Part shown: in pieces, positions 11,961-62,658 of the stretch | Layout: every line of letters starts with the position of its first letter | Position numbering within the stretch: the stretch's first letter is position 1 | From: Planctomycetota bacterium | GTDB taxonomy: Bacteria; Planctomycetota; PUPC01; DSUN01 | Direction: 5' to 3' | Assembly (NCBI GenBank): GCA_035384565.1 | Contig: DAOOIT010000021.1 | Span: forward strand, 2,560 to 66,559 | DNA: 64,000 bases | Made by a program: the position numbers and the translations under genes | Notes under the pieces: model-generated | The model's input: only the letters and a program-made list of their open reading frames with translations | Told to the model about the DNA's origin: nothing | Database searches by the model: none

Positions 11961-12221
11961 GAAGCAGGCTATCGAGAACAGGTGGGCAAGGGTAAGGGCG
12001 TTGGCCTGGTTTTCCCATTTCGCTTCTTCGGAGCTCCCGCAGCCACCTGCAATTCCGGCCCGCACCCCGAGAGGCGCCCGTGCGCCGACCGCCGGGCCTT
12101 TACCGCGTGGGGCCGATCTGCTATTCTCTGGGGCCGCCGGCGGCGGTGGCCGGCGGCGGGGAGCGCCGGCGGAGGGCCGGAGGCCGGCCAGTCATGCACG
12201 GGGAGGGGGCGGGGGAAGCCC

Positions 12222-13757: not shown

Positions 13758-13835
13758 CTGTGCTACCAGCGCGGGGCCTACACGACGGGCACGTGGCTCT
13801 TCCGGGTCGCGCCGCGCCTGCCCTATGAGTTCGCG

Positions 13836-29559: not shown

Positions 29560-29642
29560 CGGTGGCCTCCAGATGGGACGGATAGGACAGATGGGATCCG
29601 TTCCCTGGACACGTTCTATGGGTCCTCCCGGTCCTATCCGTC

Positions 29643-31208: not shown

Positions 31209-31300
31209 CCTTCGCACCTCCTGGCGGGCGGTCGCGGCCTTTGCCCCGCCCGCCATGTTACGCGGGATGCGGTCCGGGGTCAAGGGCAGGCGGCCACGGC

Positions 31301-31963
31301 TCAGGCCGTGAGGACGGCGGCCTTGAGGGCATCGAGCCCCAGGCGGTCGAGCACGCGCCCGAGTCGCTCGTGGGGCTTGGCGTGGTCGCGGTAGAAGGCC
31401 ACCACGCGGTCCACGAGGGCCAGGGCCTCTGCGGTGCCGAGGTTCTCGGCCAGGGTGTCGGCCAGGCGCGGCCGCGCGCCGCCGCTGCCGCCGACCAGCA
31501 CCATCCAGCCCTTGGACTTGCCGACGAGGGCGACGTCCTTGATGCACGTCTCGGCGCACTGGTTCATGCAGCCGGCCACGCCGATCTTGAGCTTGCCGGG
31601 CAGGTTCATGCCGTGGTACTGGGCGTCGAGCTGCATGCCCACGGCCAGGCTGTCCTGGGTGCCGCGCTTGCAGAAGGTGGTGCCCGGGCAGACCTTCACG
31701 CTGCGCACGCACAGGCCCACGGCCGCGCCCGGCGACATGCCGAGGTCCTGCCACACGGCGTCCACGTCGCTCTCCTTCAGCCCCACGATGGCGATGCGCG
31801 CGGCGCTGGTGACCTTGAGGGCCGCGGCGCCGTACTTCTCGGCCACGTCGGCCAGCTTGCGCAACTGCCCGGGCGTCACCACGCCGCAGGGCAGATGGGG
31901 GGCCACGGCATAGGTCTGCTTGTCGCGCTGGAGGATCGCTCCCTTGTCACCGTCCTGGATCAT
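31301..31963 (-). CDS. Small nitrite/sulfite-reductase-like haemoprotein (siroheme-[4Fe-4S] Cys motif), about 220 aa
   Basis: ATG at 31963 with GAAGGAG upstream. C-x5-C (VCPGTTFC) and C-x3-C (GCMNQC) spacing typical of the NIR/SIR cluster-binding region. Resembles low-molecular-weight assimilatory-type sulfite reductases. Confidence 0.5.
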
Positions 31964-42698: not shown

Positions 42699-42726
42699 GT
42701 GGGCGCTCCCTGAAGAAGGGACGAAT

Positions 42727-42759
42727 AACCTCCCGCAGGTTCCAAACCTGCGGGAGGTT
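42727..42759. repeat. REP-like GC hairpin, copy 5, between the P2 stop and the P1 start
   Basis: aacctcccgcaggtt ccaa aacctgcgggaggtt is perfectly symmetric. Confidence 0.6.
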
Positions 42760-42764
42760 GGGGC

Positions 42765-46676: not shown

Positions 46677-46688
46677 GATTCCGGGCTC

Positions 46689-47708
46689 CTATTGGGTCAG
46701 GCGGGTCTTCAGGGCCTCGAGCAGTCCATCGGGCGGCTCGCAGGGCAGCTCGATGGGCCTGTTCCGCAGCGCGCTGGTGTAGAGGCCGAGGATGGCGTTG
46801 AACTGCTCGAGCGAGCGCTCGAGGCAACACGGGTGCGGTTTCGCGGGGTCCTCCAGCCAGTCGAAGCAGGCCCCGGTGAGGCGGGCCTGGGCCAGGTCGT
46901 CCTCGACCCCATAGTGGTGCTCGCCGCGCTCGTAGCCCGCGTCGTGGGTCTGACGCTCCCACGACCACATCGTCCACTGCACGAAGCCGCGGGTGCCATA
47001 GACCGAGATGCGCTTGTGGTGGTAGCGGCTCTCCTGGGCGGTGGCCAGCGGGGCGCACAGGCCGCACACCATCATCGCGCTCACGGCGTTGGCGAAGCGG
47101 AAGCTGGCAGCGGCCATCGAGGGGGCCGGCTGACGCGACGCCAGGTCCTCGGCGCCGCCCACCTGGCCGAACACGCTGGCGAACGGGGCGAAGCCGTTGT
47201 AGCTGTGGGCCAGCTCCAGCACGTGCACGCCCTGGTCGAGCGGCGTCGAGCGGGCGGAGACGTCTATGAACCGCACCTCGCCGATGCGGCCTTCGGCCAC
47301 GTCGCGCTTGAGCTCGAGGTTGCGCGCGTGGAAGTGGAGTTGGGTGTTGACGGCGAACCTCGTGGGGCCGCGCTCGCCGAGGGCCCGGAGAGCCCGCCAG
47401 TCCTCGCCCTGGAGGGCGATGGGCTTCTCCACGATGGCCACGGGCACCCGGTGCTCGACGGCGATCGTCATCGTGGGCACGCGCAGGCCGGGCAGCGTGA
47501 CGATGTGCAAGAGGTCCGGCTTCTCGCGGTCGAGCATCTCGTGGGCGTCGCGGTAACGGGTGGCGACGCCGAACTCGTCGCCGAAGTCGTTGAGCCGCTT
47601 CTCACCGAGGTCGCAGATGGCCGCGATCTTGCCCCGCTGCACGGCCTTATAGGCTCGCGCGTGGCCTCGCGCCCGCGGCCCGCAGCCGAGGAATGCGCAC
47701 TTGAACAT
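46689..47708 (-). CDS. Gfo/Idh/MocA-family NAD(P)-dependent oxidoreductase
   Basis: ATG at 47708 with AGGAG upstream. N-terminal Rossmann fold AFLGCGPRARGHARAY and the family-typical HVLELAHSYNG helix. Confidence 0.8.
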   Translation of the reverse strand: MFKCAFLGCGPRARGHARAYKAVQRGKIAAICDLGEKRLNDFGDEFGVATRYRDAHEMLDREKPDLLHIVTLPGLRVPTMTIAVEHRVPVAIVEKPIALQGEDWRALRALGERGPTRFAVNTQLHFHARNLELKRDVAEGRIGEVRFIDVSARSTPLDQGVHVLELAHSYNGFAPFASVFGQVGGAEDLASRQPAPSMAAASFRFANAVSAMMVCGLCAPLATAQESRYHHKRISVYGTRGFVQWTMWSWERQTHDAGYERGEHHYGVEDDLAQARLTGACFDWLEDPAKPHPCCLERSLEQFNAILGLYTSALRNRPIELPCEPPDGLLEALKTRLTQ

Positions 47709-48423
47709 AACGTGCTCCTGAGAGAAAGTGTCGCGCTCCTGGAACAGGCACTCTAATCGAAGCCGCCGCGGGATGCAAGCGGGCGTGGGCCGCGGAGGCT
47801 TTGAAACCGCTGCTCCGGCCGCGAATCACTCTGCATTCCTCCGGGCAGCGACAGGCGTCTCGCTTGTCGAAAACGACCGCAAGCGGGACGCTTGCGGCTG
47901 CGTTGGAGACCCTGGCCGACGCCGCGTGGTTCCGGCCACGGCAAACTGATTCGCGGCCGGGGCAGTATCTCGGAACCCCCACGGCCTGCGACGCCGGCGG
48001 GGGCCACCCCAGAACCCCATGTGCCGCAATGCCTTACGCTCTCCGGCCATTCCCGCTCCATACTTGCTCATCCCGCAGATGAGCGAGTATGGCCGGAGCC
48101 GCGAGAATCGCCTATTCTCGCCCATCTGCCCATGCTGTATCACTTTCCCCCTCACAGGGTTGATACAGCATGGGCGCGCTGCGCCCCCAGGCACTCGGCA
48201 CGGCCCTCCCCAGAAACCGCCAGGGCCGCCAGGAGCAGACCTCCCCACGCTCTGCGCAGGCCAGTCGAACCAAGATCGCCAAACCCTGAAGAGCCGGTCT
48301 TGAGATTGCCTCTTTGCCCCTTGCTTCTGCATGCTCCGATCCGTATAATCGCGTAAGCGTCGTCGTGACGCCGGGTTGCAGCGGTGGTTCCCGCCTGTCA
48401 CGCGCATCGAGGAGGGTGAGCTC

Positions 48424-49464
48424 ATGCCAGAGCGGATGTCGAGGCTGCTGGCTCTCTGCGTTGACATTGACCGCACAGCCATCCAGACCTACAAGCGATT
48501 GGCCTCCGAGGAGCCGGACGAGCGCCTGCGCTCCTGCTGGGAACGCCTGGCGGGCGAGGAAGAACCGCATGCCCGGTACTGGTCGCGTCTGGCCCGCACG
48601 GCCGACGAGGGCCTCGCGCCGGTGCTCTTCGACGACCCGGACCAGGCGATCGCCGAACTCGAGGAGGTGGCGAGCGAAGTCAGCCGGGTTGCCGCCGGAG
48701 CGCGGGCGTCGGCAGATTCGCTCCAGCGCGCCCGTCTGAGCCTGCGCCTCGAGCTCCACCTGCTGCACCCGGCCTACGCCACGCTGCTGAATCTGCTCGA
48801 TGCGTTCGAGGAGGAGGCCCCCAAGGAGCGCCGCGCCGACCATCTCGACCGCTTTCTGATCGCGCTGCGGGATTACACCAGGAACGATCCCGATCTGGAG
48901 CTGGTGGCCAAGGCGGCGCGCCAGCTCTGGCTGCGCAACCGCGAACTCCTTCACGCGGCGCAGACCGATACCCTGATGGGGCTGTACAACTACCGCGGCT
49001 TCTGGACGGCGGCGCTGCCTCTCGCGAGCCTGGCGCAGCGGCAGAGGGAGCGGGTGGCCGTGCTGATGCTGGACGTGGACGGTTTGAGGGCGATCAACGA
49101 CACGCTGGGCCATGCGGCCGGCGACGACGTGCTCCGGGACGTCGCGGACGCCCTGCGCGACACCCTGCGCGACGCCGACGTGGCCTGCCGCATCGGCGGC
49201 GATGAGTTCGTCGCGCTCCTCGTGGGGGTGGACGACGCAGGGCTGCAAGCCGTCGTGAAGCGCCTCCAGGATGCAACGGCGGCCCTCTCGGTCTCCGGGC
49301 GTCAGGTCACGGTCAGCATCGGCGTGGCGGGGGGGCTGCTGGAGGGCGATGTCACCCAGGGCATCGAGTACTTCATGCGGGAGAGCGAGAGAAACATGCA
49401 CGCCGCGAAACGCGAGCGGATGGCCGAGGGGCCCGCGTGCGTAAGCGCGCTCGGGGTGTGCTGA
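48424..49464 (+). CDS. GGDEF-domain diguanylate cyclase with an N-terminal helical domain of unknown function
   Basis: ATG with GAGGAGGG upstream. RIGGDEFVAL active site, with the inhibitory-site-like RxxD context. Preceded by a ~700-bp structured intergenic region. Confidence 0.8.
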   Translation: MPERMSRLLALCVDIDRTAIQTYKRLASEEPDERLRSCWERLAGEEEPHARYWSRLARTADEGLAPVLFDDPDQAIAELEEVASEVSRVAAGARASADSLQRARLSLRLELHLLHPAYATLLNLLDAFEEEAPKERRADHLDRFLIALRDYTRNDPDLELVAKAARQLWLRNRELLHAAQTDTLMGLYNYRGFWTAALPLASLAQRQRERVAVLMLDVDGLRAINDTLGHAAGDDVLRDVADALRDTLRDADVACRIGGDEFVALLVGVDDAGLQAVVKRLQDATAALSVSGRQVTVSIGVAGGLLEGDVTQGIEYFMRESERNMHAAKRERMAEGPACVSALGVC

Positions 49465-49519
49465 CCGCCAGCGGTCGGTCCCCGGCCGGCGCCCGGAGAG
49501 ACGCGCCTCCCCACGCGAG

Positions 49520-52500
49520 CTACGGCGCGAAACGGCAGGCGCCCCAGAGGGCCGGCTGGAGCCGCGCTTCGGTGGGGATGTCGCTCGTGATGTTCGTGTC
49601 GCGGTTGTGCCAGCAGGCGCGCAGAGCCGTGGCCGTGCCCTTCGGGTCGCTGAAGAGCACGCCGAAGTCAATCCGCCCCTCGCCGCGGGGCACGGACGCC
49701 CCGCCCGCAACGCCAAGGAGCGCCCAGGGGATGGCGGCCTCGACCGTGTAGCCCGCGTTCCCCTTCGCCACCGCAACCTTCACTTCGTCGGCCAGCCGCA
49801 CTTCGTCCATCGTCACGGCATTGGGGCGGCCGGCGCCCTCGAAGGCGTCGAAGGTGAACGGGCGCTTCGCGGCCGACACGGGGCGGTAGAGCACGGCCCG
49901 CGGCCTGCCCTCGAGCTCGGTGAGGAGGAGGCGCAGGTCGCCTGCGCGGGGATTGGGGTCGCCGAGCTTCTCGCCGGGCGGCCGCCAGAAGAGGTCCACC
50001 GCGTCGCCCCCCTTGAAGGCGAGTTCCCAGCGGGGGGCCTTGTTGAGGAGCGGGCTGGGGTCGCGGACCTCCCAGGCGACGTACAGGTTGGCCTCGTCGC
50101 AGGCGGCCAGCACGCGGGCGCCGCGTTCAGCGTCCACCTTGATCTCCACAGCTCCCTCGCGGGGCCAGTCGTCGAGCTTGCCGTCGAGCGCGATGGGCTT
50201 GGCTGCCCGCGGGACCGTCACGGCGGCAGCGCTCTTCCCGCCGGTGAGGCGGAGCTGGCGGATCTCGGCCATTCGGGGCAGGTGCTGCGGGCGAATCTCG
50301 GTCTCGCCCGCGATCCGGCGCACCGAGTCGAGGCCCGTCACCTCGAACACGCGGCAGTCGGTGAAGCCGCTGGTGAGCAGGTAGCGCCCGTCGGCCAGGC
50401 GACTGAAAGTGCCGTGGAACGACTCCTGGCCGGGGGCCATCTGGTTGGCGAGGAAGCCGCGCTCGGGCCGGTCGGGCCAGCTCTCGAAGCTGGCGCGCGC
50501 GTCGGCGAAGAGCTGGGCGACGTAGAGCATGTCGTCGGTGAAGAGATAGCGCTGGCCGAAGTCGGAGACCCAGCAGACCACCTCGCCGCCGGCGGAGAGG
50601 TCGGCCACGCCGTGGGCCTGGAAGGGGTAGAGCACGACGCCCGGCTCGGGCAGGCGATAGGTCCAGCGGCCCGTGTGCTCGCCGCGGAACCAGAAGGTGC
50701 GGCGGGGCGGCGCATCGGCGGGCCAGATGCGGCGCATCTCGTCGAAGTAGTCGCCGCGCTCGCCGGCGCAGCCGCTGTTGTAGCTGCCGTCGCGCAGGCC
50801 GATCCCGTTCTGGCATTCGCCGGCCATCGGCTCGAAGCGGGTGAGGTCGTAGAGCGGCGTGCCGCCGGGCGTGACGGCCACGCAGCGCAGGCGCAGGCCG
50901 GGCCGTGCGACGCCGCGGCTGAAGAACAGGTCGAGGTTCTGCGAGGGGCGCAGGCCCCAGTAGTCGGTGCCGCCCCAGTCGGCGCTGCCGCCGCGCACCA
51001 CCTCGTCGTCGTCCACCCGGCCGTCGTCGTCGCGGTCGAGCCAGGCGAGGCGCTTCTCGGGGTCGAGGTGGACGCAGAGGGCCCAGCGGCGGTCGGGCCG
51101 CTCGCGGAAGATCTGGCGCGCGCCGCGGCACTTGTGGATGTAGGCCCGGCCCTGGAAGGCCATCATGTACTCGGCCTCCACGTTGCCGCCCGTGGCATGG
51201 TCGCCTTCGCCCACGGCGATGCCGAGCTTCGCGGCCCCCTCGGGCAGCACGAGGCCGACCTGGCGGAGCTGCCAGTCGCCCGTCTCGAGGTTGACCCGGA
51301 ACTGCATGTCGCGGTAGAAGGCCATCGTGGGGTCGAGGGGGTTGATGACGCCGCCGCCGCCGTAGCCGGTGTCGCCGAGGAAGTCGCGCTGCCAGCGGCG
51401 CCCCTTCCACACGCTCACGCGCTTGGGCCGCTGGGAGTTCTCGACCACCCAGAGCCGCCCGGCGGAGTCGAGGGCCAGGCCGCTGGGATTGAGGAAGCCT
51501 TCGGCCGGCTCGTACCAGCCGTTCTGCGTGCGGCCGCCCCTCTGGCCGATCTCGGTTGTGCGGCGTCGGCCCAGGAGGTCGCGCCAGTAGCACCGCACCT
51601 GATGCAGCGGCGCGCCGAAGGCCGCGTAGGCCGTGCCATCGGGGTGATAGGCCACGGCCTGCGCGGTGCTGAAGTCGCCCTGGACGATGGTGTGGATGTC
51701 GCCGGTCGTGGCGTTGAGCTCGACGAGGCCGGTGTTCGTTGCAACCAGCAATCGGCCGGGCCCGGCGGCGCCCAGCTCGCCCGCGCCGTCCAGGCGCAGG
51801 TCGCGCACGGGCTGAAGCGTGTGACGGTCGAACATGCGGATGAGCGACTTGCCCTGGACGGAGAGGAAGACCCCGCTCGGCAGCACGGCGAAGCCGGCGG
51901 CCGTCTCCTTGTCGCCCAGGAGCGCCAGGCGCTTCGTGGGCTTGCCGTCGGGGCCCTTGAGGTCGAGCCACTGGCCGGTCTCGGCGTCGAACTTCATGAG
52001 GCCGCGGGGCGTGATGCCCAGCCAGTTGCTGTCGCCGCGGCTCGTGTAGGCGTAGAGGATGCCCTCGCAGAACGCCAGGCGGTCGGGCTCGCCGCTCTTG
52101 GCGGTCCAGACCTTGCGCCCCTGCTCGTCCACGGCGAAGAGGGGGAAGCCGGCCTCGGCCCCGAGGCCGCCCAGGAAGACGCGCCCTTCGCCCGTGGCCA
52201 CGCATTGGAGGTTCCCGTGGTCCGGCCCCCAGGCGCCGGTGCCGTCGCTATTGGCCCAGGGACAGACGCGGTTCGGCTGGTAGAAGCTCATCCGCCAGCG
52301 GACGTCAATGGGGCCGCGCGTGAGGCCCACCCAGCGGTACTGGCCGAGGGGCAGCGGCTCGTTGCGGTCGCTGAGGCCCGACCAGAAGACCGTGTGGTGG
52401 CCCTGGGCGAACGGCACGCCGCCGAGCAGGCTGCACACGCGGTTGCCCGCTGCGTCCTCGATGGCGATGGAGGCAAAGCCGTCGTGGGGCATCTCGAAGG

Positions 52501-53329
52501 TGACGGGCACGAGGCCGGGCGGCTCAGCCTTGCGGGCGGCCATCCAGGGCGGGGGCGGGAGCGAGAGGTTGCCTTTCTCTTCGAGAATCAGCCGGCCCCA
52601 GGCCTTCGTGTTCGTCCAGAAGAAGTCGGTCTGCGTCTCGCCGTCGGCCAGGTTGTCGGTCACGCGGCTGCGGGGCCAGGTCTGGGCGTCGGCGTCGCCC
52701 CAGAACATCTCGAGGCCGAGGCGCAGGTCGGCTGTGCGGGCGGGCGCCTTGCCGTCGCTGGTGATGACCTTCCACGGGAGCTTGATCTCCTGCGTGTAGC
52801 CCCTGCCGTCGGGCGCGAGGCGGAATGCCTGCTGGGCCCCGAGCTGCTCGGGGTAGACGGGGCGGTCCACCTTCGCCGCCTCCGCCTTGCCGCCCACCGG
52901 GCCGTAGTGGACCGTCATCGCCGGCTTGCGGCCGGGCGCGTAGTACCAGGCATCAATGTGGCTGATGAAGCCGGCCATGTTGCAACGGAGTTGCACGGCA
53001 TCGGACCGCCAGCCGTTGCCGACCATCGTGGCGGGGTCGATCTTGTTCACCATCGGCGTGGTGTCGCGAAACACGAAGGCCAGGTAGAGCGCCTCGGCGT
53101 CCCACATGGCGGCCACGCGCACGCTCTCGGTGTCGAGGAGGTGCTCGACGTCCTTGCAGCACACGATGGCCCCCGACGTGTCCCATTCCCCCAGGTCACC
53201 GTCAATCGCCACCTTCGCGGGCGCCGGCACCGCGTGCAGCCCGTGATTCAGCGTCCGCTCGGCGAGGGCGGGACAGCTCAGGGCGAGAACGCACGAGGCG
53301 AGGCAGAGAGCCAGGCTGGCTGAGCGCAC
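49520..53329 (-). CDS. Giant secreted protein P3 (~1269 aa), paralogue of P2
   Basis: GTG at 53329 with GAAGGAGAAG upstream (inside the last codons of P4). Signal peptide, then N-module DGDLGEWD...EALYLAFVFRD and a C-terminal CBM9/DOMON-like module. Confidence 0.55.
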   Translation of the reverse strand: MRSASLALCLASCVLALSCPALAERTLNHGLHAVPAPAKVAIDGDLGEWDTSGAIVCCKDVEHLLDTESVRVAAMWDAEALYLAFVFRDTTPMVNKIDPATMVGNGWRSDAVQLRCNMAGFISHIDAWYYAPGRKPAMTVHYGPVGGKAEAAKVDRPVYPEQLGAQQAFRLAPDGRGYTQEIKLPWKVITSDGKAPARTADLRLGLEMFWGDADAQTWPRSRVTDNLADGETQTDFFWTNTKAWGRLILEEKGNLSLPPPPWMAARKAEPPGLVPVTFEMPHDGFASIAIEDAAGNRVCSLLGGVPFAQGHHTVFWSGLSDRNEPLPLGQYRWVGLTRGPIDVRWRMSFYQPNRVCPWANSDGTGAWGPDHGNLQCVATGEGRVFLGGLGAEAGFPLFAVDEQGRKVWTAKSGEPDRLAFCEGILYAYTSRGDSNWLGITPRGLMKFDAETGQWLDLKGPDGKPTKRLALLGDKETAAGFAVLPSGVFLSVQGKSLIRMFDRHTLQPVRDLRLDGAGELGAAGPGRLLVATNTGLVELNATTGDIHTIVQGDFSTAQAVAYHPDGTAYAAFGAPLHQVRCYWRDLLGRRRTTEIGQRGGRTQNGWYEPAEGFLNPSGLALDSAGRLWVVENSQRPKRVSVWKGRRWQRDFLGDTGYGGGGVINPLDPTMAFYRDMQFRVNLETGDWQLRQVGLVLPEGAAKLGIAVGEGDHATGGNVEAEYMMAFQGRAYIHKCRGARQIFRERPDRRWALCVHLDPEKRLAWLDRDDDGRVDDDEVVRGGSADWGGTDYWGLRPSQNLDLFFSRGVARPGLRLRCVAVTPGGTPLYDLTRFEPMAGECQNGIGLRDGSYNSGCAGERGDYFDEMRRIWPADAPPRRTFWFRGEHTGRWTYRLPEPGVVLYPFQAHGVADLSAGGEVVCWVSDFGQRYLFTDDMLYVAQLFADARASFESWPDRPERGFLANQMAPGQESFHGTFSRLADGRYLLTSGFTDCRVFEVTGLDSVRRIAGETEIRPQHLPRMAEIRQLRLTGGKSAAAVTVPRAAKPIALDGKLDDWPREGAVEIKVDAERGARVLAACDEANLYVAWEVRDPSPLLNKAPRWELAFKGGDAVDLFWRPPGEKLGDPNPRAGDLRLLLTELEGRPRAVLYRPVSAAKRPFTFDAFEGAGRPNAVTMDEVRLADEVKVAVAKGNAGYTVEAAIPWALLGVAGGASVPRGEGRIDFGVLFSDPKGTATALRACWHNRDTNITSDIPTEARLQPALWGACRFAP

Positions 53330-53333
53330 GATG

Positions 53334-56300
53334 TCACTTCTCCTTCTCGAATTCGAGCGTCCCCCACAAGTTCGGCTGGAGGCGGGCCTCGGAGGGGACG
53401 TCGGACATGATCTTGGTGTTCTGGTTGGCCCAGTAGACGCGGTCCACGGCGCGGGTGCCGGTCTGGTCGGAGAGGACTCTGCCCACATCACCACGGATGA
53501 TCGGGGTCTTCGCGGGGTCGAGGTGGAGGGCGGCGAGCGGCACGGCGGCCTCGAGGACGAAGCGGTCGCCCTTCCGCTCGACGGCGACCTTCGCCTCCGC
53601 GAGGATGGCGACGCGGTCCATGTAGAGGGTGCGCCAGGGCGAGGAAAAGGGGAGCCGGGCCTCCTTCGGTGTGCCAGGGACGACGTAGTCGTAGAGGATG
53701 GCGGCGGGCCTGCCGCCGACCATCGTGAAGCTCAGGCGGATATCGCCCTCGGCCGCGTCGGAGCGCTTCGGGTCGAGGCCGGCCCGCGTCTCCAGCATCA
53801 CGTCCACCACATCGCCGGTCTTGAAGGCCTCGAGGAAGTCGTCGGCCTTCGCGGCGTTCTGGAAGACCGCGCGGTCGTCCTTGCCCTCGAAGAGGACGTA
53901 GAGGTGGGCGTCGTCGTAGCCGAGGGCGAAGCCGTCGCCAAAGCGCTCCTTCGGCCAATCGTCGGGCTTTCCATCCACCGCGACGCCCTGGAGGCGGCGA
54001 ACGGTCTGGCGTCTGGGCTGGGCAACGGCGAGGGCGCGTTGCTGGCGCAGGCGCTCGGCCGCGAGGAAATGCTCCTTCGTGACCGTGAACTCGCCGCCCG
54101 CGATGCGGCGGATCCCGTCGAGGCCGCGAAGCTCGACGACCGAGCAATGGGGCTGGCCGACGACGTAGAGGAACTTGTGGGCCTCGCGGCGCGGGGAGAA
54201 GAGACCGCCTGAAGGCGGGACCACGAGCGAGCGAACCTTCTGGAAGGTGCCGCCGAAGTGCTCGTCGCCGAGCGAAACCTGGTTCATCAGGGCATCGGAG
54301 GGCGGCGTGTCCATCCGCCACGAGAGGCCCCGCCGCACGTCGCGGAACACGCGGTCAATGTAGAGGCCGTCGGCGGTGAAGAGGTAGGTCGCGCCGAGGT
54401 TGCTGTTGAGGCAGATGACCTCGCCGACCTCCTGGTTGACCCAGGCGGAGCCGAAGAAGCGGGTGGGCGCGATGAGTACGCCCGGCTCGCTGCCGAGGGC
54501 GCCCGTGTCGTGTCCCGCGTGGAGGCCGGGCCAGAGGTTCTTGTAGCGCCAGCGGATCCGGCCGTCGGGGGCCATGCTGGTGACGTAGTGGTCGAGGCTG
54601 ATGGCGTTGCCCTCGCGGTCGGTGAAGACGGCGTCGGCGGCGTGCCGGCCCTCGAAGGTGTGGAAGGCCGTGGGCAGGCGCCAGACGGGATAGCCCTCTC
54701 TCGTGAGCCGCTCGACGCGGAAGAAGGCGATGCCCGCGACGCCGTAGTGGCCGTCGCTGAGGGCGACCTCGAAGTCCTCGTTCATGCGGAACTGCCACGT
54801 GGCGCCTGCGCGGTCGGCGACCTTCTCGCCGAGCATGAGCTTGCCGAATTGCACCTCGTCGCGCTGCACCTTGCCGTCGGCGTTGGCATCGGTCCAGGCG
54901 AAGATCGCGTGGTCGGCAGGCACGTCGAAGCGCTTGCGCAGCCACTCGGGCACGGTGCCGAGGGCGGCGACGGGGCGGACGAAGCCCCCTTGGGCCTCGC
55001 GGGGCAGGGACGCCCCGCCCACCGGGTCAACGTAGACCCAGAGCGTGGTGTTGCTGCCGTTGGCCCAGCCCTGCCAGCTTGTGAGGAAGAGCGTGCTCGT
55101 GCGGCGGAAGAGCGACCGCTGCTCGCGGCGAAAGGGATAGGAGGGGTAGCTGCCGAAGCGGTCGTAGCGGTCGTCGTCGCTCCGCCAGAAGAGATGCGTG
55201 AGGCGAATGGCGCCCGTCCGGGGGTCGCGGCGGAACTCTTTGCCGTGGTAGAAGAAGTGGTTCTCGTCGGCGGGGTCCATCTCGCCGCCGCCGCCGTACA
55301 TCGGCGGGCCGAGCACCTGGTTGATGCAGCGGCCGGCCAGGTCCCACACGCTCGTGCGCTTGAGGTCCTCACTGAATTCACAAACCCAGACGTTGCCCTT
55401 GACGTCCACCTCGACGCCCGAGGGGCTTTCCAGGTTGTCGGGGTCGAAGGCGCCCACACGGTGCTTGCCCGGCTTGCCGATGGCGCGGAGCGGCTTGCCG
55501 TCGCGGGAGAAGACCTTCACCTGGTGCACGGGGTCCATCTCGCCCACGTAGAAGCAGCCTGCCTCGTCCACGGCCAGCCCGAGCGGATTCGTGAGGCCGG
55601 TCACGACGGGCCTCACGTCGCCCGTCTGGCGATGGATGAGGACCACACGCGAGCCGCTCACGGCAGCCAGATGGTCGGCGTCGTAGGGGCGGATGCGGCC
55701 GGGCTTCTCGAGGGCGATCTCCTTCACGACCGTCATCTGCTCGTGGTCGAGGAGCTTCCAAGCGATGTTCCAGGCGAAGCCGGCGGGCCGGGCGGCGAGG
55801 TTCTTCGAGAGGTCCAGCACGAGGACGACGTTCTTCGCGCGGTCGGCGAGCCAGGCGCGGTCGCCGGCGACGGCGAGGCCCTGGATATCGGCCTTCTCGT
55901 CCTTCGCCAGGTCGCGGCCGAGCAGGCGGCGGCTGGCCTTGGTCGTGCGGTGGACCTGGATCATCACGATCTTGTCCTTCACCCAGCCGCCCTGCTCGAC
56001 GTAGTAGATGAAGTCGCCGTCGGCGGCCAGCACACGCGGGCAGGCCAGCCAGATGCGGCCCGAGCCCCAGAGTTTCTTCATGTCCAGGTCGGCCTCGAGC
56101 AGCGCGTGGCCCGCTTCGCAGAAGGTGCCGGCCCACATGGTGGGCGGCGTGTCCCCACGCCGCGTGTCGCGGGACGGGGATGTCCCGCCCACAACGGTGC
56201 CCACCACATCCTGCGGCGGCACGTGGTCGGCCAGCCAGCCGCCGGTCGTGTCGGCCGTGATCCAGGCCAGCCCGTGCTTCTTGAGCGGGTAGTAGGAGAA

Positions 56301-57677
56301 CAGGTAGTGGAGCGACAGCGGCGGGTGCCACAGCCCCCGCCAGCGGTAGCGGCCGGGCGGGGCGACTTTCGCCGCGTCGGGCGACGGCTCGTGGAAGAAG
56401 TGGTTCGGCCGCTCGTACGGCGGCCAGTAGTCCTCCAGCGTCCGCAGGTCCCACCAGGCCGTGTGCCGTCCCTTCGGGAAGCTTTCGCCGGACACGAGGT
56501 TCTCGATGACGCGGCCCTTGTCATCGAGTATCTGGATGGTGGCCAAGCCGCCCTGCGGCAGGTCGAACGTGATGGGCACGATGCCCTCGGGCGCCGCGCT
56601 GGGCTTCGCGAGGCGTGTGGGGGCGGGGCGGTCGGCGAGGTCCTCGAACACGACGAGTTCGCCGATGGAGACCACGGTGGGGTCGGCCCCTTCGCCGCCG
56701 GCGGCGAGCTCCTTCGTGGTGCCTGCGATGGCCAGGAAGCGCAGGGCGCGCGTTTCGACCGTCTGGCCGAAGTCGCAATAGGCCTCCCAGAAGAGCGGCG
56801 GGCGCCAGGGCTTACGGGTCGTCAGCTTGCCGATGGTCTCCCACCCCTCGTGGTAACCTCCCGCAGGTTTGGAGTCTGCGGGAGGCTGGACCCAGCGCTG
56901 GACGAGGATTTCGGCGAAGCCGGGCTGGTGGGCGCCGATGAAGGCCGCGCAGCCGCGCATCGGGCGCGGCGCGCCCCAGTCGAGCACGATCCACTCGGGC
57001 CTCTCGGGCGAAAGCGGCTCCAGGCGCTCCCCGCTCGACCAGTTGCTGTGGCCCACCGCGCCGTTGAGGAGCACGGCGGGGTCATTGAGCTGCGCGTCGG
57101 GCGCGAAGCCGCGCGAGCGCGGCCCGCTCGAACTCACAAAGAGGTCGGCCAGCGGCGCCACGTTCACGTATCGCCCCGCCAGCATCGTGGCGAAGGCCAG
57201 CTCGGCGCGGAACTTGCCGCTGCTGTCGGGCGACATCGGGCCGCTGAGCCGCACCGCCTTCGTCACCACGCCCGGCGGCAGGGGCACGACGCGCAACTCG
57301 TGCGACTCGGAGCCAGGATACGGCGCCTCGGCCCAGTTCCCGTCCTTCAGCGGCTCTGCCGCTGCGTCGGGCTTCAGGTAGCTCACGCGCCACTTGCCAT
57401 AGGCCAGCACGGTGCCGACCGGCACCGGCTGCTTGAGCGCAATGACGAAGTGCGCGTCGCCTCCCTCGGCCGTCGCCTCCGTGCGCCAGACGTCGTGGCC
57501 GATGGCCTCGGCCCGCAGAACGCCCTTGTGCGCCGCCACGCGGCCGGGCAAGGCATAGCTCCCCTCGGCGTCCGGCACCAGAACCTCCCGCAGGCTCCGA
57601 ACCTGCGGGAGGTCCGGCCCGCTCCACGCGAAGTGCATCGCCACACAGGCCATCAGAGAGACAAGGCGTCTGGGCAT
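53334..57677 (-). CDS. Giant secreted protein P4 (1447 aa) sharing the C-terminal CBM9/DOMON-like module with P1-P3
   Basis: ATG at 57677 with GAGGAAGAG upstream. C-terminus DGKPDDWPK...DDAHLYVLFEG...ARLQPNLWGTLEF. Carries one family-2 element and two REP-like hairpins in-frame. Confidence 0.55.
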   Translation of the reverse strand: MPRRLVSLMACVAMHFAWSGPDLPQVRSLREVLVPDAEGSYALPGRVAAHKGVLRAEAIGHDVWRTEATAEGGDAHFVIALKQPVPVGTVLAYGKWRVSYLKPDAAAEPLKDGNWAEAPYPGSESHELRVVPLPPGVVTKAVRLSGPMSPDSSGKFRAELAFATMLAGRYVNVAPLADLFVSSSGPRSRGFAPDAQLNDPAVLLNGAVGHSNWSSGERLEPLSPERPEWIVLDWGAPRPMRGCAAFIGAHQPGFAEILVQRWVQPPADSKPAGGYHEGWETIGKLTTRKPWRPPLFWEAYCDFGQTVETRALRFLAIAGTTKELAAGGEGADPTVVSIGELVVFEDLADRPAPTRLAKPSAAPEGIVPITFDLPQGGLATIQILDDKGRVIENLVSGESFPKGRHTAWWDLRTLEDYWPPYERPNHFFHEPSPDAAKVAPPGRYRWRGLWHPPLSLHYLFSYYPLKKHGLAWITADTTGGWLADHVPPQDVVGTVVGGTSPSRDTRRGDTPPTMWAGTFCEAGHALLEADLDMKKLWGSGRIWLACPRVLAADGDFIYYVEQGGWVKDKIVMIQVHRTTKASRRLLGRDLAKDEKADIQGLAVAGDRAWLADRAKNVVLVLDLSKNLAARPAGFAWNIAWKLLDHEQMTVVKEIALEKPGRIRPYDADHLAAVSGSRVVLIHRQTGDVRPVVTGLTNPLGLAVDEAGCFYVGEMDPVHQVKVFSRDGKPLRAIGKPGKHRVGAFDPDNLESPSGVEVDVKGNVWVCEFSEDLKRTSVWDLAGRCINQVLGPPMYGGGGEMDPADENHFFYHGKEFRRDPRTGAIRLTHLFWRSDDDRYDRFGSYPSYPFRREQRSLFRRTSTLFLTSWQGWANGSNTTLWVYVDPVGGASLPREAQGGFVRPVAALGTVPEWLRKRFDVPADHAIFAWTDANADGKVQRDEVQFGKLMLGEKVADRAGATWQFRMNEDFEVALSDGHYGVAGIAFFRVERLTREGYPVWRLPTAFHTFEGRHAADAVFTDREGNAISLDHYVTSMAPDGRIRWRYKNLWPGLHAGHDTGALGSEPGVLIAPTRFFGSAWVNQEVGEVICLNSNLGATYLFTADGLYIDRVFRDVRRGLSWRMDTPPSDALMNQVSLGDEHFGGTFQKVRSLVVPPSGGLFSPRREAHKFLYVVGQPHCSVVELRGLDGIRRIAGGEFTVTKEHFLAAERLRQQRALAVAQPRRQTVRRLQGVAVDGKPDDWPKERFGDGFALGYDDAHLYVLFEGKDDRAVFQNAAKADDFLEAFKTGDVVDVMLETRAGLDPKRSDAAEGDIRLSFTMVGGRPAAILYDYVVPGTPKEARLPFSSPWRTLYMDRVAILAEAKVAVERKGDRFVLEAAVPLAALHLDPAKTPIIRGDVGRVLSDQTGTRAVDRVYWANQNTKIMSDVPSEARLQPNLWGTLEFEKEK
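56138..56193. repeat. Family-2 55-bp palindromic element, opposite orientation, in-frame in P4
   Basis: tggtgggcggcgtgtccccacgccgcgtgtcgcgggacggggatgtcccgcccaca. Encodes VVGGTSPSRDTRRGDTPPTM. Confidence 0.6.
56855..56885. repeat. REP-like GC hairpin, copy 6, inside the P4 CDS
   Basis: aacctcccgcaggtt tggagt ctgcgggagg. Encodes ...QPPADSKPAGGY... Confidence 0.55.
57582..57613. repeat. REP-like GC hairpin, copy 7, inside the P4 CDS N-terminus
   Basis: aacctcccgcagg ctccg aacctgcgggaggt. Encodes DLPQVRSLREV, a different frame from copy 6. Confidence 0.55.
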
Positions 57678-57772
57678 CTCTTCCTCGACAAGCGTGGTTG
57701 CGGCAAGACCCTCCCTGCGTGTAGATTATAGGTTCGACGCCGCACATGCAACTCGCACAGGAGGATCGCAGG

Positions 57773-59230
57773 ATGACCGCTGCCGAGTTCACCCTCATGG
57801 CCTGTTCGATTCTTGCCCCGATCACCGCGCTCGCCGAGGGGCCGCCCGAGGCGAAGTGGGACATCGCGTCCCTCGCCCGCATCGTGCAGCCGATGAAGCA
57901 CGACATGAAGGGCCGCCTGCCGCTCATCCTGTGGAACTTCCCCCTGCCCCGCAACGACCAGGCCGCGAAGATGCGCGAGGACGGCTCGCTCCGCAAGGCG
58001 ATTGACGTGTTGGCCGAGCGCGGCATCGTGCCCACCGTGGAACTGGGCTGGGAGTGGACCCCCGCCGGGGCAATGGCGATGGCCAGGACCCTCGACGAGG
58101 CCGGCTGCCCCGTCTTCATCCTCCAGCCCGACTGCGAGCTGCTGGAGAAGGGCGCCTGGGCCCACTGCACGGTGTGGGGCGAAGGCCCCGACGCCACGCG
58201 GAAGAACGAGACCCGCAAGTGGCCGTGCCTGCCGCTGGCCGACCCGCGCGACGGAGCCGAGCGGGTGCGCAAGATGCTCCAGCCCTTCAAGGAGGCCGGC
58301 ATCCGCGTGGCCGGCGTGTGGTTCGACGACGAGGCCCTGCCCCACCCCTGGAACGGCTGTTTCGAAGCGCAACGCAAGTCCGAAGAATGCCGCAAGCACT
58401 ACCCGCCCGGCGTGCTGGACGATTTCAAGCGGTTCAATGAATGGACGTATGCGCTGCGCTCGCGCCTCATCGTCGAGATCATGGCCAGGCCCGTGCGCGA
58501 GCTGTTCCCCAACGCCATCGTCGGCAACTACGGCGAGTTCGCCTCCAGCGCCGAGATGCCGTTCGAGGGCCTGCGCCCGCCGCGCAAGCTCGACCCCAGC
58601 GTGCCCCTTATGCCCTCCGCTTACGCGAACACCAACCTGCTCCCTCGCCACTTCAAGCCTGATGAGCCCGTGACGCAGGAGAAGGCCGACGCCATCTACT
58701 TCTTCGACCTGATGCGCACCGTGAGCACCTGCAACGCCAACCGCCAGCCCGGCCAGCTCAGCATCCCGTTCCTCAGCCGCTACACGCCTGACAACCCCGA
58801 CCCGCGCTTCCTGGTGCCGATGAGCCAGCGGGCCTTCCGCGAGGTGGTTTGGCACACCTTCCTGCGCGGCGCCGCCACCATCTACGTGTTCAACCTGGGC
58901 TATCCCACGCGGCCCCAGACCGTCACGCCCGCCCTCTCGTTCGAGTCGGTCGAGGACGTGCGGAGCGTCTACGACGCTCTCCTCGCCCACCGCGAGTTCC
59001 TCGACAAGGGCGAGCCGGTGAACTTCAGGTTCCCGCCGCTCTTCAGCGCGGAGCCGGTGTGGTCGGGGTTGCGGCTGGGCGACCGATGCCTGGTGCGCAC
59101 CTTCACCCTCGGTGCCGTGGCCGCCAAGGTCGAGGTCACCCCTTTCCCCGGCGTCACCCTCACCCTCGACGCCCCGCCCGAGGGCGCGCTGCTTGTCGTC
59201 CACAACGATGGCCGAGTCCGGAGACTCTGA
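57773..59230 (+). CDS. Secreted hypothetical protein (485 aa)
   Basis: ATG with AGGAGG 8 nt upstream; signal peptide MTAAEFTLMACSILAPITALA. No family recognised. A possible promoter TTGCGG...TAGATTAT lies at 57708-57745. Confidence 0.45.
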   Translation: MTAAEFTLMACSILAPITALAEGPPEAKWDIASLARIVQPMKHDMKGRLPLILWNFPLPRNDQAAKMREDGSLRKAIDVLAERGIVPTVELGWEWTPAGAMAMARTLDEAGCPVFILQPDCELLEKGAWAHCTVWGEGPDATRKNETRKWPCLPLADPRDGAERVRKMLQPFKEAGIRVAGVWFDDEALPHPWNGCFEAQRKSEECRKHYPPGVLDDFKRFNEWTYALRSRLIVEIMARPVRELFPNAIVGNYGEFASSAEMPFEGLRPPRKLDPSVPLMPSAYANTNLLPRHFKPDEPVTQEKADAIYFFDLMRTVSTCNANRQPGQLSIPFLSRYTPDNPDPRFLVPMSQRAFREVVWHTFLRGAATIYVFNLGYPTRPQTVTPALSFESVEDVRSVYDALLAHREFLDKGEPVNFRFPPLFSAEPVWSGLRLGDRCLVRTFTLGAVAAKVEVTPFPGVTLTLDAPPEGALLVVHNDGRVRRL

Positions 59231-59278: not shown

Positions 59279-61012
59279 TCAACTGGCCGGGTTCCCGCCT
59301 ACCGTAGCAATCGGGGCAGCGGCCAGCCTGCGGATGACTTGCCACATGGCATCGGCATCCTTCGCCGCGAGGAGGGCTTCGCGGTTCGCCGCCACGCCCA
59401 TGGCCGCAGCCAGGGTGCGCAGGACTCGGAGCTGCTGGACCGGCTCGCTGGTCGGCGTGACGACGAGGAACAGGATGCGCACGGGCAGGCCGTCGGGGGC
59501 GTTCCACTCGAGGCCGGCCGGCGCCAGGCCAACGGCCACCACAGGCTGCGGGGCAGTGGCGAGGCGCGCGTGGGGCACGGCGATGCCGTTGCCGAGCGCG
59601 GTGCCCATGGTGTTCTCGCGCGCCAGCGCGGCGGCGGCGATGGCCTCGGCGTCGCCCTCGGGCAGATGGCGCGCCGCCACGGCGCACAGCTCGCGGATCG
59701 CCTCGTCGCGCGAAGCCGCCCGGAGCGCCGGCACCAGGGCGCTGCGGGCGAAGAAGGACGCCACCCCCTCGGCGCGCAGGCCGCGCAGCGCCCACTTCAT
59801 CCAGGGGCCGAGGGCCAGGGTGGACGCCAGGGCGCCGAACACGATGGCCACGAAGACCGCCTCGGAGATCACGTGGAACTCAAGAGCCAGGATGCCGACG
59901 ACGATCTGCATCTCGCCGCCCGGCGTATGGGCCACGGCGATCACGTGGCGCTCGCCGGCCGGCCGGCCCGACAGCCGCGCCCCCACCCACGCCCCCAGGA
60001 AGCGGCCCGCCACCCCGATGGCCAGGATGAACACCACCAGAAAGAGGTCAAACTGGGCCAGAAAGTCCACCTTCAGCCCGATCGAGGCGAAGAACAGGGG
60101 GACCAGGATGGCGCGCACCATCTGCGCGATGACGTGGCGGGTCTTCTCCGACAGGGCCTTGGCCTCGCCGGCCATGATGCCGGCGATGAAGAAGCCGAAG
60201 AGTGCGTGGATGCCGATCTGGAGGGTGATGGCGCCGCCCAGCATGCCGAGCAGGCAGATGAAGGTGAGCGACGTGCCCGGCTCGGGCAGGCCCCAGCGAT
60301 GGAAGGCGGCGAGCGCGCGGTCCGTGGCCAGCCGCCCCAGCGTCAGGCACGCCACGGCGAAGGCCACCGTGGCGGCCAGAATGAACGGCACGGTCGCGAG
60401 GTTCATCCCGCCCTCGGTCGCGTAGCCCAGGATCACGGCGAACACGATCCAGCCCACCACGTCGTTGATCGTGAGCGCGCACAGGATCAGCAGCCCGGTG
60501 TCGCTGCGGTACAGGTTCAGGTCCTGCATCACCCGCGCCGTCACCGGCAGCGCGCTGATGGTCATGATCGTGGCCACGAAGAGCGCGAAGAGAAGGCGAT
60601 CGCCGCCATCGCCGACATAGGCCGCCGGCAGCAGCAGGCAGGGCACGAAGGCCACCAGCATGGGCAGCACGAGGTCCGACAGCGAGATGAGGGCCCCCTC
60701 GCGCCGCTGCCGCCAGGCCGCCGTGAAATCGGTTTCCAGCCCCATCTGGAGCAGGAAGAACAGGATGCCCATCCAGGCGAGCGTCTCAAGCATGCCCGAC
60801 TGGGCGGGGTTATCGGGGAAGATGGCCTGGCGGAGCGCCGGGGCGACCCGCCCGAGGATCGTGGGGCCGAGGGCCACCCCCACCAGCACCTCGCCCGTGA
60901 TCGCCGGCTGCCCCACACGCGACAAGAGGATCCCCGCCGCCCGCGACAGGCCCAGCAGAAGGATCACCTGCACGAGGAACAGGAAGAGATTGGTTTCGTC
61001 GAGATAATGCAC
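59279..61012 (-). CDS. CPA2-family cation:proton antiporter fused to a C-terminal PTS EIIA(Ntr/Fru)-type regulatory domain
   Basis: GTG at 61012. About 12 TM helices with a Na+/H+ exchanger-like core. The C-terminal ~150 aa carry the PTS_EIIA_2 His motif LGNGIAVPHARL. Confidence 0.7.
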   Translation of the reverse strand: MHYLDETNLFLFLVQVILLLGLSRAAGILLSRVGQPAITGEVLVGVALGPTILGRVAPALRQAIFPDNPAQSGMLETLAWMGILFFLLQMGLETDFTAAWRQRREGALISLSDLVLPMLVAFVPCLLLPAAYVGDGGDRLLFALFVATIMTISALPVTARVMQDLNLYRSDTGLLILCALTINDVVGWIVFAVILGYATEGGMNLATVPFILAATVAFAVACLTLGRLATDRALAAFHRWGLPEPGTSLTFICLLGMLGGAITLQIGIHALFGFFIAGIMAGEAKALSEKTRHVIAQMVRAILVPLFFASIGLKVDFLAQFDLFLVVFILAIGVAGRFLGAWVGARLSGRPAGERHVIAVAHTPGGEMQIVVGILALEFHVISEAVFVAIVFGALASTLALGPWMKWALRGLRAEGVASFFARSALVPALRAASRDEAIRELCAVAARHLPEGDAEAIAAAALARENTMGTALGNGIAVPHARLATAPQPVVAVGLAPAGLEWNAPDGLPVRILFLVVTPTSEPVQQLRVLRTLAAAMGVAANREALLAAKDADAMWQVIRRLAAAPIATVGGNPAS

Positions 61013-61170
61013 CCCGGCTCATCCCTCTGCGGCGGCAGGCTCCTCCGTCGTCACGCTCACAACTCCCGCTTCGCCAGCATAGCGCCTGGTTCGACCCCTG
61101 GCAAGCCCATCGCGAGGGCCGAGCGTGCCCGCGGAGCCTGTCCCGCGCCGCGTGGAACGGATGGGCCGAG

Positions 61171-61401
61171 TCAATCGAGCCCGAGTTCCTGCACCAGCTC
61201 GCTCACCTCTCCCTCGTCGGGGAAGCGGCCGGTCTTGTGCTTTGAGTACACGAGCTTGCCATCCACCGTCACGTCGAAGATGCCGCCGCTGCTTTCGATG
61301 AGCTTCACCTGGGCGTCGAACGCTTGCTTCAGCTCGACTGCCACACGGGCAGCCGTCGGGCGATAGTTTCAGGCCGTGCAGTACTTGATCTCCACGTTCA
61401 C
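61171..61401 (-). CDS. selW: SelW/Rdx-family selenoprotein (76 aa) with in-frame TGA selenocysteine codon
   Basis: GTG at 61401 with GGAAAGGAG 7 nt upstream. N-terminus VNVEIKYCTA-U-NY, where U is the TGA at 61369-61371, giving the CxxU redox motif. Reading through yields a typical SelW-like tail (...KLVYSKHKTGRFPDEGEVSELVQEL). A GC hairpin lies 13 nt downstream of the TGA. Confidence 0.6.
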
Positions 61402-61404
61402 AGG

Positions 61405-62349
61405 TCATCTCCTTTCCACGAGGGCGGAGCGGACGAAGGCCGGGGCGAGGGGCGTGAGGCCGAGAGGGGTCTGCTTGATCTGGTTGGCCTTGCCCTCGAC
61501 GGCCGTGGCGGCGAGGAACCCCGCGCAGCATCGCGGGCAGTGCTGGGCCGAGAGGGCGATGCGGCGGGCGAGCTTGGCATATTCCTTCTGCCGCGGCCTG
61601 GGCGCGTGCTCGGCGAGCAGGGCGCGGAAGCCCTCGGCGTCGCCCGCGGCTGCCTTCTCGGCGAGCGCGCCGAGCAACGCGGCGCCTGCACTCCAGGCCT
61701 CCTCCTGCTCCTTCGCGTAGGCCGCCTGGCCCTCGGCGTCGTTCTTCCTCACCCTGCGCGGCGCCACGCCCGCGGGGATGAGGCCGAGCGACTTCGTGCG
61801 GAAGTAGACCTGGCAGGTGTTGCAGTAGGCCTTCTTCCACAGGATGATCGGCACGACGAGGCTGCCGAGCACGAAGCCGGCGACCTCCAGCGCCCGCAGG
61901 CCATAGCCCCAGGCGCCCAGCGGCTGACCGGGCATCCCGCCCGCGCCCTTCCACGCGAAGGCGCGCGTCGCGGCGTCGAAGTACTCCCAGAAGCCCAGCG
62001 GTGTGCCGTCCCGGTAAACGGGCTTGAGCACCGTGTACTCGATATACTGCGCGGCGAAGTAGGCGGCGATCTGCACGAGCACGATCGTCCACAGCAGCAT
62101 CTTGGTGATCTTCACGCCGGCGAACCACGAGGCCAGGCCGTAACCGCTGGCGGCCGCCAGGCCCACGAGAATGGCCCCCACGGGGATCACGTAATTGGCG
62201 TACCAGCCCATCACGTTCGCGTCGGCATGGCGGTTGAGCAGGTAAACGCCGAGGAGGGCCAGCGTGGTGGTGATCAGCCCCGCGCCCAGGACGAGGCGAA
62301 CCTGCCCGCCCGTGGCGACGGGGGCGGGGGTGGGTTCGCTGCTGCTCAT
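61405..62349 (-). CDS. Membrane protein (~5 TM) with Cys-rich cytoplasmic C-terminal domain
   Basis: ATG at 62349 with AGGAGA upstream. Contains CNTCQ...CPRCC. Its last codons contain the RBS of the selW-like gene, 4 nt upstream of it. Confidence 0.45.
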   Translation of the reverse strand: MSSSEPTPAPVATGGQVRLVLGAGLITTTLALLGVYLLNRHADANVMGWYANYVIPVGAILVGLAAASGYGLASWFAGVKITKMLLWTIVLVQIAAYFAAQYIEYTVLKPVYRDGTPLGFWEYFDAATRAFAWKGAGGMPGQPLGAWGYGLRALEVAGFVLGSLVVPIILWKKAYCNTCQVYFRTKSLGLIPAGVAPRRVRKNDAEGQAAYAKEQEEAWSAGAALLGALAEKAAAGDAEGFRALLAEHAPRPRQKEYAKLARRIALSAQHCPRCCAGFLAATAVEGKANQIKQTPLGLTPLAPAFVRSALVERR

Positions 62350-62658
62350 GGCTTCTCTCCTGAGTGTCACGTCTCGTGTTCGGCGCGTTCCAAGATAGCG
62401 TGTGGGACGTTTCTCGGCAAGCTCACAAGGTGCGCCGCTGGCCGTCAACGCGGGCGATGGGGTCGGCGTGCTGCTCAGGGGCTGGGCGCCAGGGCGTCGC
62501 CACGTATCGCCTCGATCCCCCCGGGCCCCCGGCCTCGTGGGCGCGGTCGGCGGCCATTTCGTTATGCACCTGGCGCGGAGCTTTCCCTTCCGCGGGCCAG
62601 TATTCGCGCCCTGCCCCGGTCGGTTCCATTCGCGCAGATTCGCGCGATTCGCGGTCCA

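Follow-up and report, generated by a model that had tools for sequence, protein, structure and literature searches.

The window, by which we mean the whole 64-kb stretch of DNA analyzed here, contains a genuine but unexceptional gene of the SelW-like selenoproteins, a well-known bacterial family in which the in-frame UGA and the RNA hairpin 3' of it are kept in many phyla. We consider it highly probable that this locus encodes an Rdx/SelW-like selenoprotein whose in-frame UGA is read as selenocysteine (Sec) by way of a SECIS element, and that the gene, called selW below, closes a transcript of two genes. The product would be a small cytoplasmic redox protein of thioredoxin fold with the active site Cys-Thr-Ala-Sec. 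During translation, a hairpin would display a C-G-U-G-U loop 21 nt 3' of the UGA (a 13-nt spacer and 8 nt of stem), and the SECIS would bring SelB-GTP-Sec-tRNA(Sec) to the ribosome as it approaches, with the result that the UGA would be read as Sec and not as a stop. In its mature form, the 76-residue protein would alternate between selenol/thiol and selenenylsulfide forms.

The selW-like gene and its hairpin

Reading of the minus strand confirmed the coordinates, GTG start, ribosome-binding site, TGA, hairpin, and 314-aa ORF that had been given in a first-pass annotation of this DNA (Table 1). From the start codon, GTG 61401-61399, the frame reads VNVEIKYCTA-TGA(61371-61369)-NYRPTAARVAVELKQ...GLD, and the full read from GTG 61401 is VNVEIKYCTA-TGA-NYRPTAARVAVELKQAFDAQVKLIESSGGIFDVTVDGKLVYSKHKTGRFPDEGEVSELVQELGLD. 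A homologous GGAAAGGAAG was found ahead of selW in the related loci L001, L005, L089, and L091.

Table 1. Coordinates of the features of the selW locus, numbered from the first letter of the window
Feature	Position	Strand	Details
Candidate sigma-70-type promoter, TTGCCG-17 nt-TATCTT	62392..62420	minus	Putative; 8/12 matches, below scan threshold
314-aa membrane protein gene	61405..62349	minus	ATG 62349, stop TGA 61407-61405
selW Shine-Dalgarno AAGGAG	61409..61414	minus	7 nt 5' of GTG, within the last codons of the membrane protein gene
selW-like (Rdx family) selenoprotein gene	61171..61401	minus	76 codons including Sec, plus stop TGA 61173-61171
In-frame UGA, predicted Sec codon	61369..61371	minus	U of C-T-A-U; from frame reading and comparison
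Bacterial SECIS hairpin (predicted)	61335..61355	minus	5' arm 61355-61348, loop CGUGU 61347-61343, 3' arm 61342-61335

The first-pass annotation had called this a SelW/Rdx gene with the TGA at the U of the CxxU motif, and both the profile match and the sequence alignments with solved homologues agree. Scored with C in place of U, the 76-residue product matched the Pfam Rdx profile PF10262 at 80.9 bits (E 7.6e-23; cut-off 22.6 bits) in the Pfam scan, with the alignment covering positions 1-73 of the 74 in the profile and residues 2-71 of selW. Among solved structures, the product matched 2FA8 (Atu0228, E 3e-12), 3DEX (SAV_2001), and, more weakly, 2NPB (mouse SelW). An alignment with Cys homologues had been proposed as a check: the IKY-C-T-A-U of selW aligns with IRY-C-T-Q-C in 2FA8 and IEY-C-T-Q-C in 3DEX, which places the U of CxxU opposite the second Cys of CxxC in these two best, although distant, matches. 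The CxxU motif directly follows the first beta-strand at the N terminus, and homology to the solved Rdx structures suggests a thioredoxin-like beta-alpha-beta-beta-beta-alpha fold for the product.

Automated pipelines had been expected to miss the gene, and they do. The JGI call on the source contig (3300010347, Ga0116238_10000277) is a 57-aa ORF that begins after the TGA, at GTG 61344, inside the SECIS hairpin, and 18 of 18 database relatives are 45-61-aa fragments that start past the TGA. The practical value of the analysis is one of annotation: selW and all of the approximately 100 relatives encountered stand in public protein sets as 45-61-aa fragments without the active site. The biological addition is one further SelW-like selenoprotein, from a Planctomycetota-like genome.

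The hairpin, CGGCUGCC-CGUGU-GGCAGUCG, begins 13 nt after the UGA and consists of an 8-bp stem and a 5-nt loop, with a free energy of -12.4 kcal/mol when folded alone. Compared with shuffled sequences, this energy is unremarkable for sequence of 70% GC (z = -0.55), and folds of 56 nt and of 131 nt gave no significant difference from shuffles; folding energy was therefore dropped as evidence, and the significance of the hairpin was judged by comparison among loci. The published criteria for bacterial SECIS (bSECIS) elements (PMC13188914 Fig. 2) are an apical loop of 3-9 nt closed by an upper stem of 4-16 bp; a G in loop position 1 or 2, usually followed by G or U; a distance of 16-37 nt from the UGA to the loop; and a free energy of -7.5 kcal/mol or lower. 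The window hairpin passes all four, and 63 of the 66 orthologous hairpins lie within the energy limit.

An alignment of 66 distinct sequences, each running from 6 nt ahead of the TGA to 51 nt past it, required no gaps. The helix is formed by columns 24-30 with columns 36-42, with these 7 bp kept family-wide and pair 23/43 added in the clade of the window. Across the 66 sequences, 82% of cells in the helix were paired. Double changes occurred at six of the eight helix pairs (54 double-change cells compared with 17 expected), and pair 27-39 takes six types: CG, GU, UA, UG, AU, and GC. Covariation for the helix was 0.340 compared with 0.132 after shuffling, a value reached by none of 500 shuffles, although the hairpin lies inside a coding sequence, the sequences are related, and part of the conservation is protein driven. 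Controls in which the helix was slid by 1-3 columns gave covariation of 0.118 or less. RNAalifold recovered five of the eight pairs from the alignment with a weak energy, and the explicit pair count was used instead. The loop consensus is N-G-U-N-U, in which the G is invariant, both U's are present in at least 90% of sequences, and a U follows the G in 64 of 66. The codon that carries this G-U is NGU in the same number of sequences (AGU in 47, GGU in 10, and CGU in 7, encoding Ser, Gly, or Arg); NGU is kept whichever amino acid it encodes, which indicates constraint at the nucleotide level rather than the protein level. The alignment offers a clean comparative demonstration of the SelW-like SECIS. 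Judged against the published criteria and on its covariation, the hairpin proposed in the first-pass annotation qualifies as a bona fide bacterial SECIS, and SelB is predicted to bind it.

The upstream membrane protein gene

Only 3 nt separate the stop of the 314-aa membrane protein gene from the GTG of selW; this gap and the Shine-Dalgarno sequence inside the upstream gene make coupled translation of the two plausible. A promoter scan of the window did not report the candidate promoter listed in Table 1. Approximately 95 nt comprising the promoter and leader of the membrane protein gene could, however, be aligned at approximately 76% with the leader directly 5' of selW in L001. This locus carries the next-closest selW, and the conserved leader there runs straight into selW with no membrane protein gene. 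A leader common to the L001 selW and the membrane protein gene of the window shows that the membrane protein gene was gained or lost between leader and selW, and its conservation supports co-transcription in the window. The two genes are probably co-transcribed, as likely members of one operon, and the two-gene transcript would start from the conserved promoter and leader 5' of the membrane protein gene, with selW at its end. The two ORFs are in the same frame; a read-through fusion of the membrane protein and SelW was considered and rejected because in L089 and L091 the membrane protein gene ends in TAG, and because the codon between the two genes differs among loci (CCT, CGG, CAG, or TGG).

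The membrane protein has four predicted transmembrane helices and a cytoplasmic C-terminal alpha/beta domain, and its AlphaFold2 model (pLDDT 90.8) contains four long transmembrane helices. All 99 homologues are annotated as hypothetical, and a Pfam scan of the protein returned no domain. Comparison by Pfam, PDB sequence, and fold gave no match to DsbB, DsbD, VKOR, or another oxidoreductase. The CNTC...CPRCC tail noted in the first-pass annotation is present (CNTC at residues 176-179, CPRCC at 271-275). Of its five cysteines, C176, C179, C271, and C274 are invariant among 32 family sequences, but the second C of the "CC" is not. Both CxxC motifs sit at beta-hairpin turns in the AlphaFold2 model, a placement that would fit a metal site of the zinc-ribbon type better than a redox centre.

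It had been suggested that the SelW-like protein and the membrane protein are a redox pair anchored in the membrane. As a dedicated pair, the selenoprotein would reduce or oxidize the CxxC motifs or would be tethered to the membrane protein; in a wider version, a flavodoxin-like FMN reductase would supply the electrons. The tight gene layout and the four invariant cysteines are consistent with this suggestion, and the same arrangement recurs: the membrane protein gene and selW are adjacent in the window, L089 (86% identity to the window membrane protein), L091/L092 (75%), and L005/L095 (68%). The wider distribution argues against it. The membrane protein gene occurs without selW in L090 (80% identity), L087/L094 (70%), and all homologues at 61% identity or less, so that selW follows it in 4 distinct loci of approximately 90, all with at least 68% identity to the window protein. 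Conversely, the membrane protein gene is present at 2 of 80 selW loci and is missing from L001 despite the shared leader. The pairing is, among the loci compared, confined to one shallow Planctomycetota clade. Taken together with the lack of a match to any oxidoreductase family or fold and the zinc-ribbon-like placement of the CxxC motifs, this distribution leaves the redox pair unsupported, and we regard it as unlikely. What stands of the coupling to the membrane protein is a layout that fits an operon with possible translational coupling, but the pairing is found only in a few close relatives.

Neighbor clustering over 71 loci gave lineage-specific synteny only and no universal partner of selW. 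One recurring neighbor is a 152-aa flavodoxin-like/FMN_red protein, whose gene lies immediately 5' of the membrane protein gene in L005, L090, and L091; an FMN_red/flavodoxin-like homologue (34-36% identity) is encoded directly 5' of selW in six Pseudomonadales loci. These placements favor the wider version of the redox pair, but the 64-kb window has no flavodoxin-like gene. This neighbor is the only lead toward the function of SelW-like proteins. It is conceivable, but doubtful, that in the small Planctomycetota clade selW ends a cassette with a flavodoxin-like FMN reductase (in some relatives) and the four-helix Cys4 protein, and that the links among them are functional. If they were, the cassette would yield, for the first time in the twenty years that bacterial SelW-like proteins have been known, a physiological electron donor and client for them. 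The lineage-restricted grouping of a flavodoxin-like reductase with a Cys4 membrane protein and a SelW-like protein is the only forward-looking element of the analysis and could be used in the design of experiments. No description of an operon with an uncharacterized membrane protein was found in the published accounts of the SelW-like family that were consulted.

Conservation and probable decoding of the UGA

The orthologue scan, restricted to one genome per species, yielded 80 selW loci, of which 79 were complete. All 79 have TGA at the Sec position; neither a Cys codon (TGC or TGT) nor TAA or TAG occurs there. In every one of these loci the TGA follows a short peptide of the conserved form start-x-[IV]-x-[IV]-x-[YF]-C-x-x. 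The hosts belong to approximately ten bacterial lineages, including Planctomycetota, Acidobacteriota (Thermoanaerobaculia and Holophagales), many Pseudomonadales, other Gammaproteobacteria, Verrucomicrobiota, Gemmatimonadota, Chloroflexota, Nitrospirota, SAR324, and one Deinococcus MAG. The selW sequence of the window is present in identical form on six contigs, which argues against a sequencing error at the TGA. UGA is also the normal stop of 21 of the 31 genes in the window, including the membrane protein gene directly upstream of selW, which indicates a standard code with no global reassignment. Conservation of the TGA, the six contigs, and the standard code together exclude, for practical purposes, a pseudogene lesion or sequencing error.

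No selA, selB, selD, or tRNA-Sec gene was found within the 64-kb window: Pfam scans of its 31 ORFs gave no SelA, SelB, or SelD, and ARAGORN found no tRNA of any kind, tRNA-Sec included. In 88 related loci (L001-L088), ARAGORN detected ordinary tRNAs but no tRNA-Sec, and the fetched flanks of the relatives contained no Sec-machinery genes. A search of both strands of the window with 4227 Rfam models gave no hit at the gathering threshold of any model. A scan of the window for a second in-frame TGA with coding-like GC3 on both sides returned selW and trivial same-frame neighbors only. Complete Sec machinery has been documented in some Planctomycetes (PMC4807772), and by comparison with its relatives Sec decoding in this organism is very likely. 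The nearest genomes are Planctomycetota MAGs. The rest of the window also has the character of Planctomycetota DNA: it encodes numerous glycoside hydrolases, secreted proteins of very large size with CBM9, a DsbD, and a 2-oxoacid dehydrogenase E1/E2 operon.

Were the TGA instead a genuine stop, whether through a pseudogene lesion or through sequencing error, any real product would be the 57-aa ORF from GTG 61344. That ORF is what all automated calls report, and the window has yielded no Sec machinery. Against this, not only the TGA but also the ten-codon peptide upstream of it is conserved in all 79 complete loci, across phyla. A strong Shine-Dalgarno sequence precedes GTG 61401 and none precedes GTG 61344, and the match to the Pfam profile reaches back to position 1 only when the codons upstream of the TGA are included. 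The location of the 57-aa start within the SECIS hairpin and the identity of the sequence on six contigs point the same way. The comparative data thus effectively refute a genuine stop, which we consider very improbable. Decoding of the UGA as something other than Sec, through near-cognate Trp or Cys read-through or a lineage-specific reassignment, is scarcely credible: nothing specific favors it, UGA ends 21 of the 31 genes in the window, simple read-through gives no role to a conserved hairpin with a GU loop at SECIS distance, and the selenoprotein nature of the family is established (PMC1088965, PMC2398784, PMC13188914).

Comparison with known systems

Like DsbB, DsbD/CcdA, and VKOR, the 314-aa protein is a polytopic membrane protein with paired cysteines. 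Its Cys pairs, in contrast, are in a soluble C-terminal domain and not in or between transmembrane helices, it has no sequence or fold similarity to these proteins, and its pattern resembles a Cys4 zinc ribbon.

The selW hairpin agrees with the E. coli fdhF-type/bSECIS model (Zhang & Gladyshev 2005, summarized in PMC13188914) in being a stem-loop after the UGA with a small loop that has a G and then a U near its 5' side. Compared with the E. coli fdhF SECIS, the window element is a short perfect helix of 7-8 bp. The long lower stem and the bulged U described for the fdhF element appear to be absent here.

The Cys-containing Rdx proteins (2FA8, 3DEX, 2OKA, 2OBK, 2OJL, and 2P0G) and mouse SelW (2NPB) are homologous to the selW product over the whole domain (E 3e-12 to 4e-4), with CxxC or CxxU at the same position. 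The bacterial Cys-containing structures differ from it in having Cys for Sec, in being approximately 30 residues longer, and in their low identity.

Descriptions of bacterial SelW-like selenoproteins date from 2004-2005 (Kryukov & Gladyshev 2004; Zhang, Fomenko & Gladyshev 2005, PMC1088965). They are the most abundant selenoproteins in marine metagenomes according to the GOS analysis, which counted 427 Sec and 56 Cys forms (PMC2398784), and the scarcity or absence of Cys homologues is a noted feature of theirs (PMC1088965, PMC1794560, PMC2398784). The current catalogue entry is "SELENOW-like, PF10262, CxxU" (PMC13188914). The selW product shares with this family a single domain of approximately 75 residues with an N-terminal beta1-CxxU, a SECIS inside the ORF just past the UGA, routine mis-annotation as a truncated ORF, and a strong excess of Sec over Cys forms (79 to 0 among the closest loci here). 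Nothing essential differs, the copy described here lying on a Planctomycetota-like metagenome contig of approximately 70% GC. The functional idea attached to its neighbor does not hold up, whereas selW itself shows every testable defining feature of the SelW-like family and of the bSECIS model and is a newly recognized gene of a known family.

The membrane protein gene and its leader

The gene directly upstream of selW, the SelW-like selenoprotein gene, encodes a 314-aa membrane protein that belongs to an uncharacterized family of approximately 100 homologs from Planctomycetota and Acidobacteriota metagenomes. No Pfam domain was found in the protein, which consists of four transmembrane helices followed by a cytoplasmic domain with an invariant CxxC...CxxC motif. 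The AlphaFold2 model was confident (pLDDT 90.8), and no convincing counterpart was found for it in the PDB. A promoter-like sequence and leader of approximately 95 nt, with the common sequence TTGTGAGCTTGCC...TATCYT..., is shared at approximately 76% identity between the window and L001, a locus from another genome that carries selW without the membrane gene. Because the same leader precedes the membrane gene in the window and sits directly upstream of selW in L001, the alignment implies that the membrane gene would have been cleanly inserted or deleted between the two arrangements.

Features in the window and in related loci
Feature	Location	Coordinates	Strand	Remarks
Membrane protein gene	window	61405-62349	-	314 aa
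Promoter-like sequence and leader	window	62349-62440	-	
Promoter-like sequence and leader	L001	9850-9945		
Sigma-70-like site	window	61076-61104	-	TTGCCA-17-TATGCT; 9/12 matches
Na+/H+ exchanger-PTS EIIA fusion gene	window	59279-61012		downstream of selW
ORF	window	57746-59230	+	494 aa; no Pfam match
ORF	window	53334-57677	-	1447 aa; no Pfam match
Glucose-6-phosphate dehydrogenase ORF	window	29643-31754	-	
DsbD-like gene	window	27823-29817		
DUF6785 and DUF6784 genes, adjoining	window	11748-14192	+	669 aa (E 7e-103) and 118 aa
Flavodoxin-like/FMN_red gene	L005	2527-2982		152 aa
Flavodoxin-like/FMN_red gene	L090	2018-2473		152 aa
Flavodoxin-like/FMN_red gene	L091	1429-1884		152 aa
Mobile or toxin-antitoxin genes	L001	1391-9718		
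Mobile or toxin-antitoxin genes	L087	2425-2962		
Mobile or toxin-antitoxin genes	L089	1176-1790		
Mobile or toxin-antitoxin genes	L091	711-1248		

Other genes in the window

The sigma-70-like site lies between selW and the exchanger fusion gene, and this fusion gene is probably transcribed from a promoter of its own. Downstream of selW, the window showed no terminator-like site. Large uncharacterized proteins are typical of Planctomycetota, and the neighbors of the 1447-aa and 494-aa ORFs (38673-53494) are 1300-aa-class proteins with CBM9 or beta-helix matches only. The DUF6785 and DUF6784 genes are a conserved, functionally uncharacterized pair. The earliest in-frame start of the glucose-6-phosphate dehydrogenase ORF is approximately 200 codons upstream of its Pfam domains and overlaps the terminal part of the DsbD-like gene; the real start is probably further downstream.

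Neighborhoods in related loci

Genes flanking the selW/membrane gene neighborhood in relatives encode phage integrase, DUF3987, DUF932, PemK toxin, DUF433/PIN-like and Uma2 proteins. The presence of these mobile and toxin-antitoxin genes suggests that the neighborhood is a variable, recombination-prone region, consistent with its shuffled gene content. The flavodoxin-like/FMN_red gene is absent from the window; in Planctomycetota relatives, it repeatedly adjoins the upstream side of the membrane gene and selW cassette. In a Pseudomonadales lineage, a homolog (34-36% identity) is located directly upstream of selW (L009, L030, L037, L049, L056 and L058), and the flavodoxin-like/FMN_red protein could be an electron donor for SelW-like proteins.
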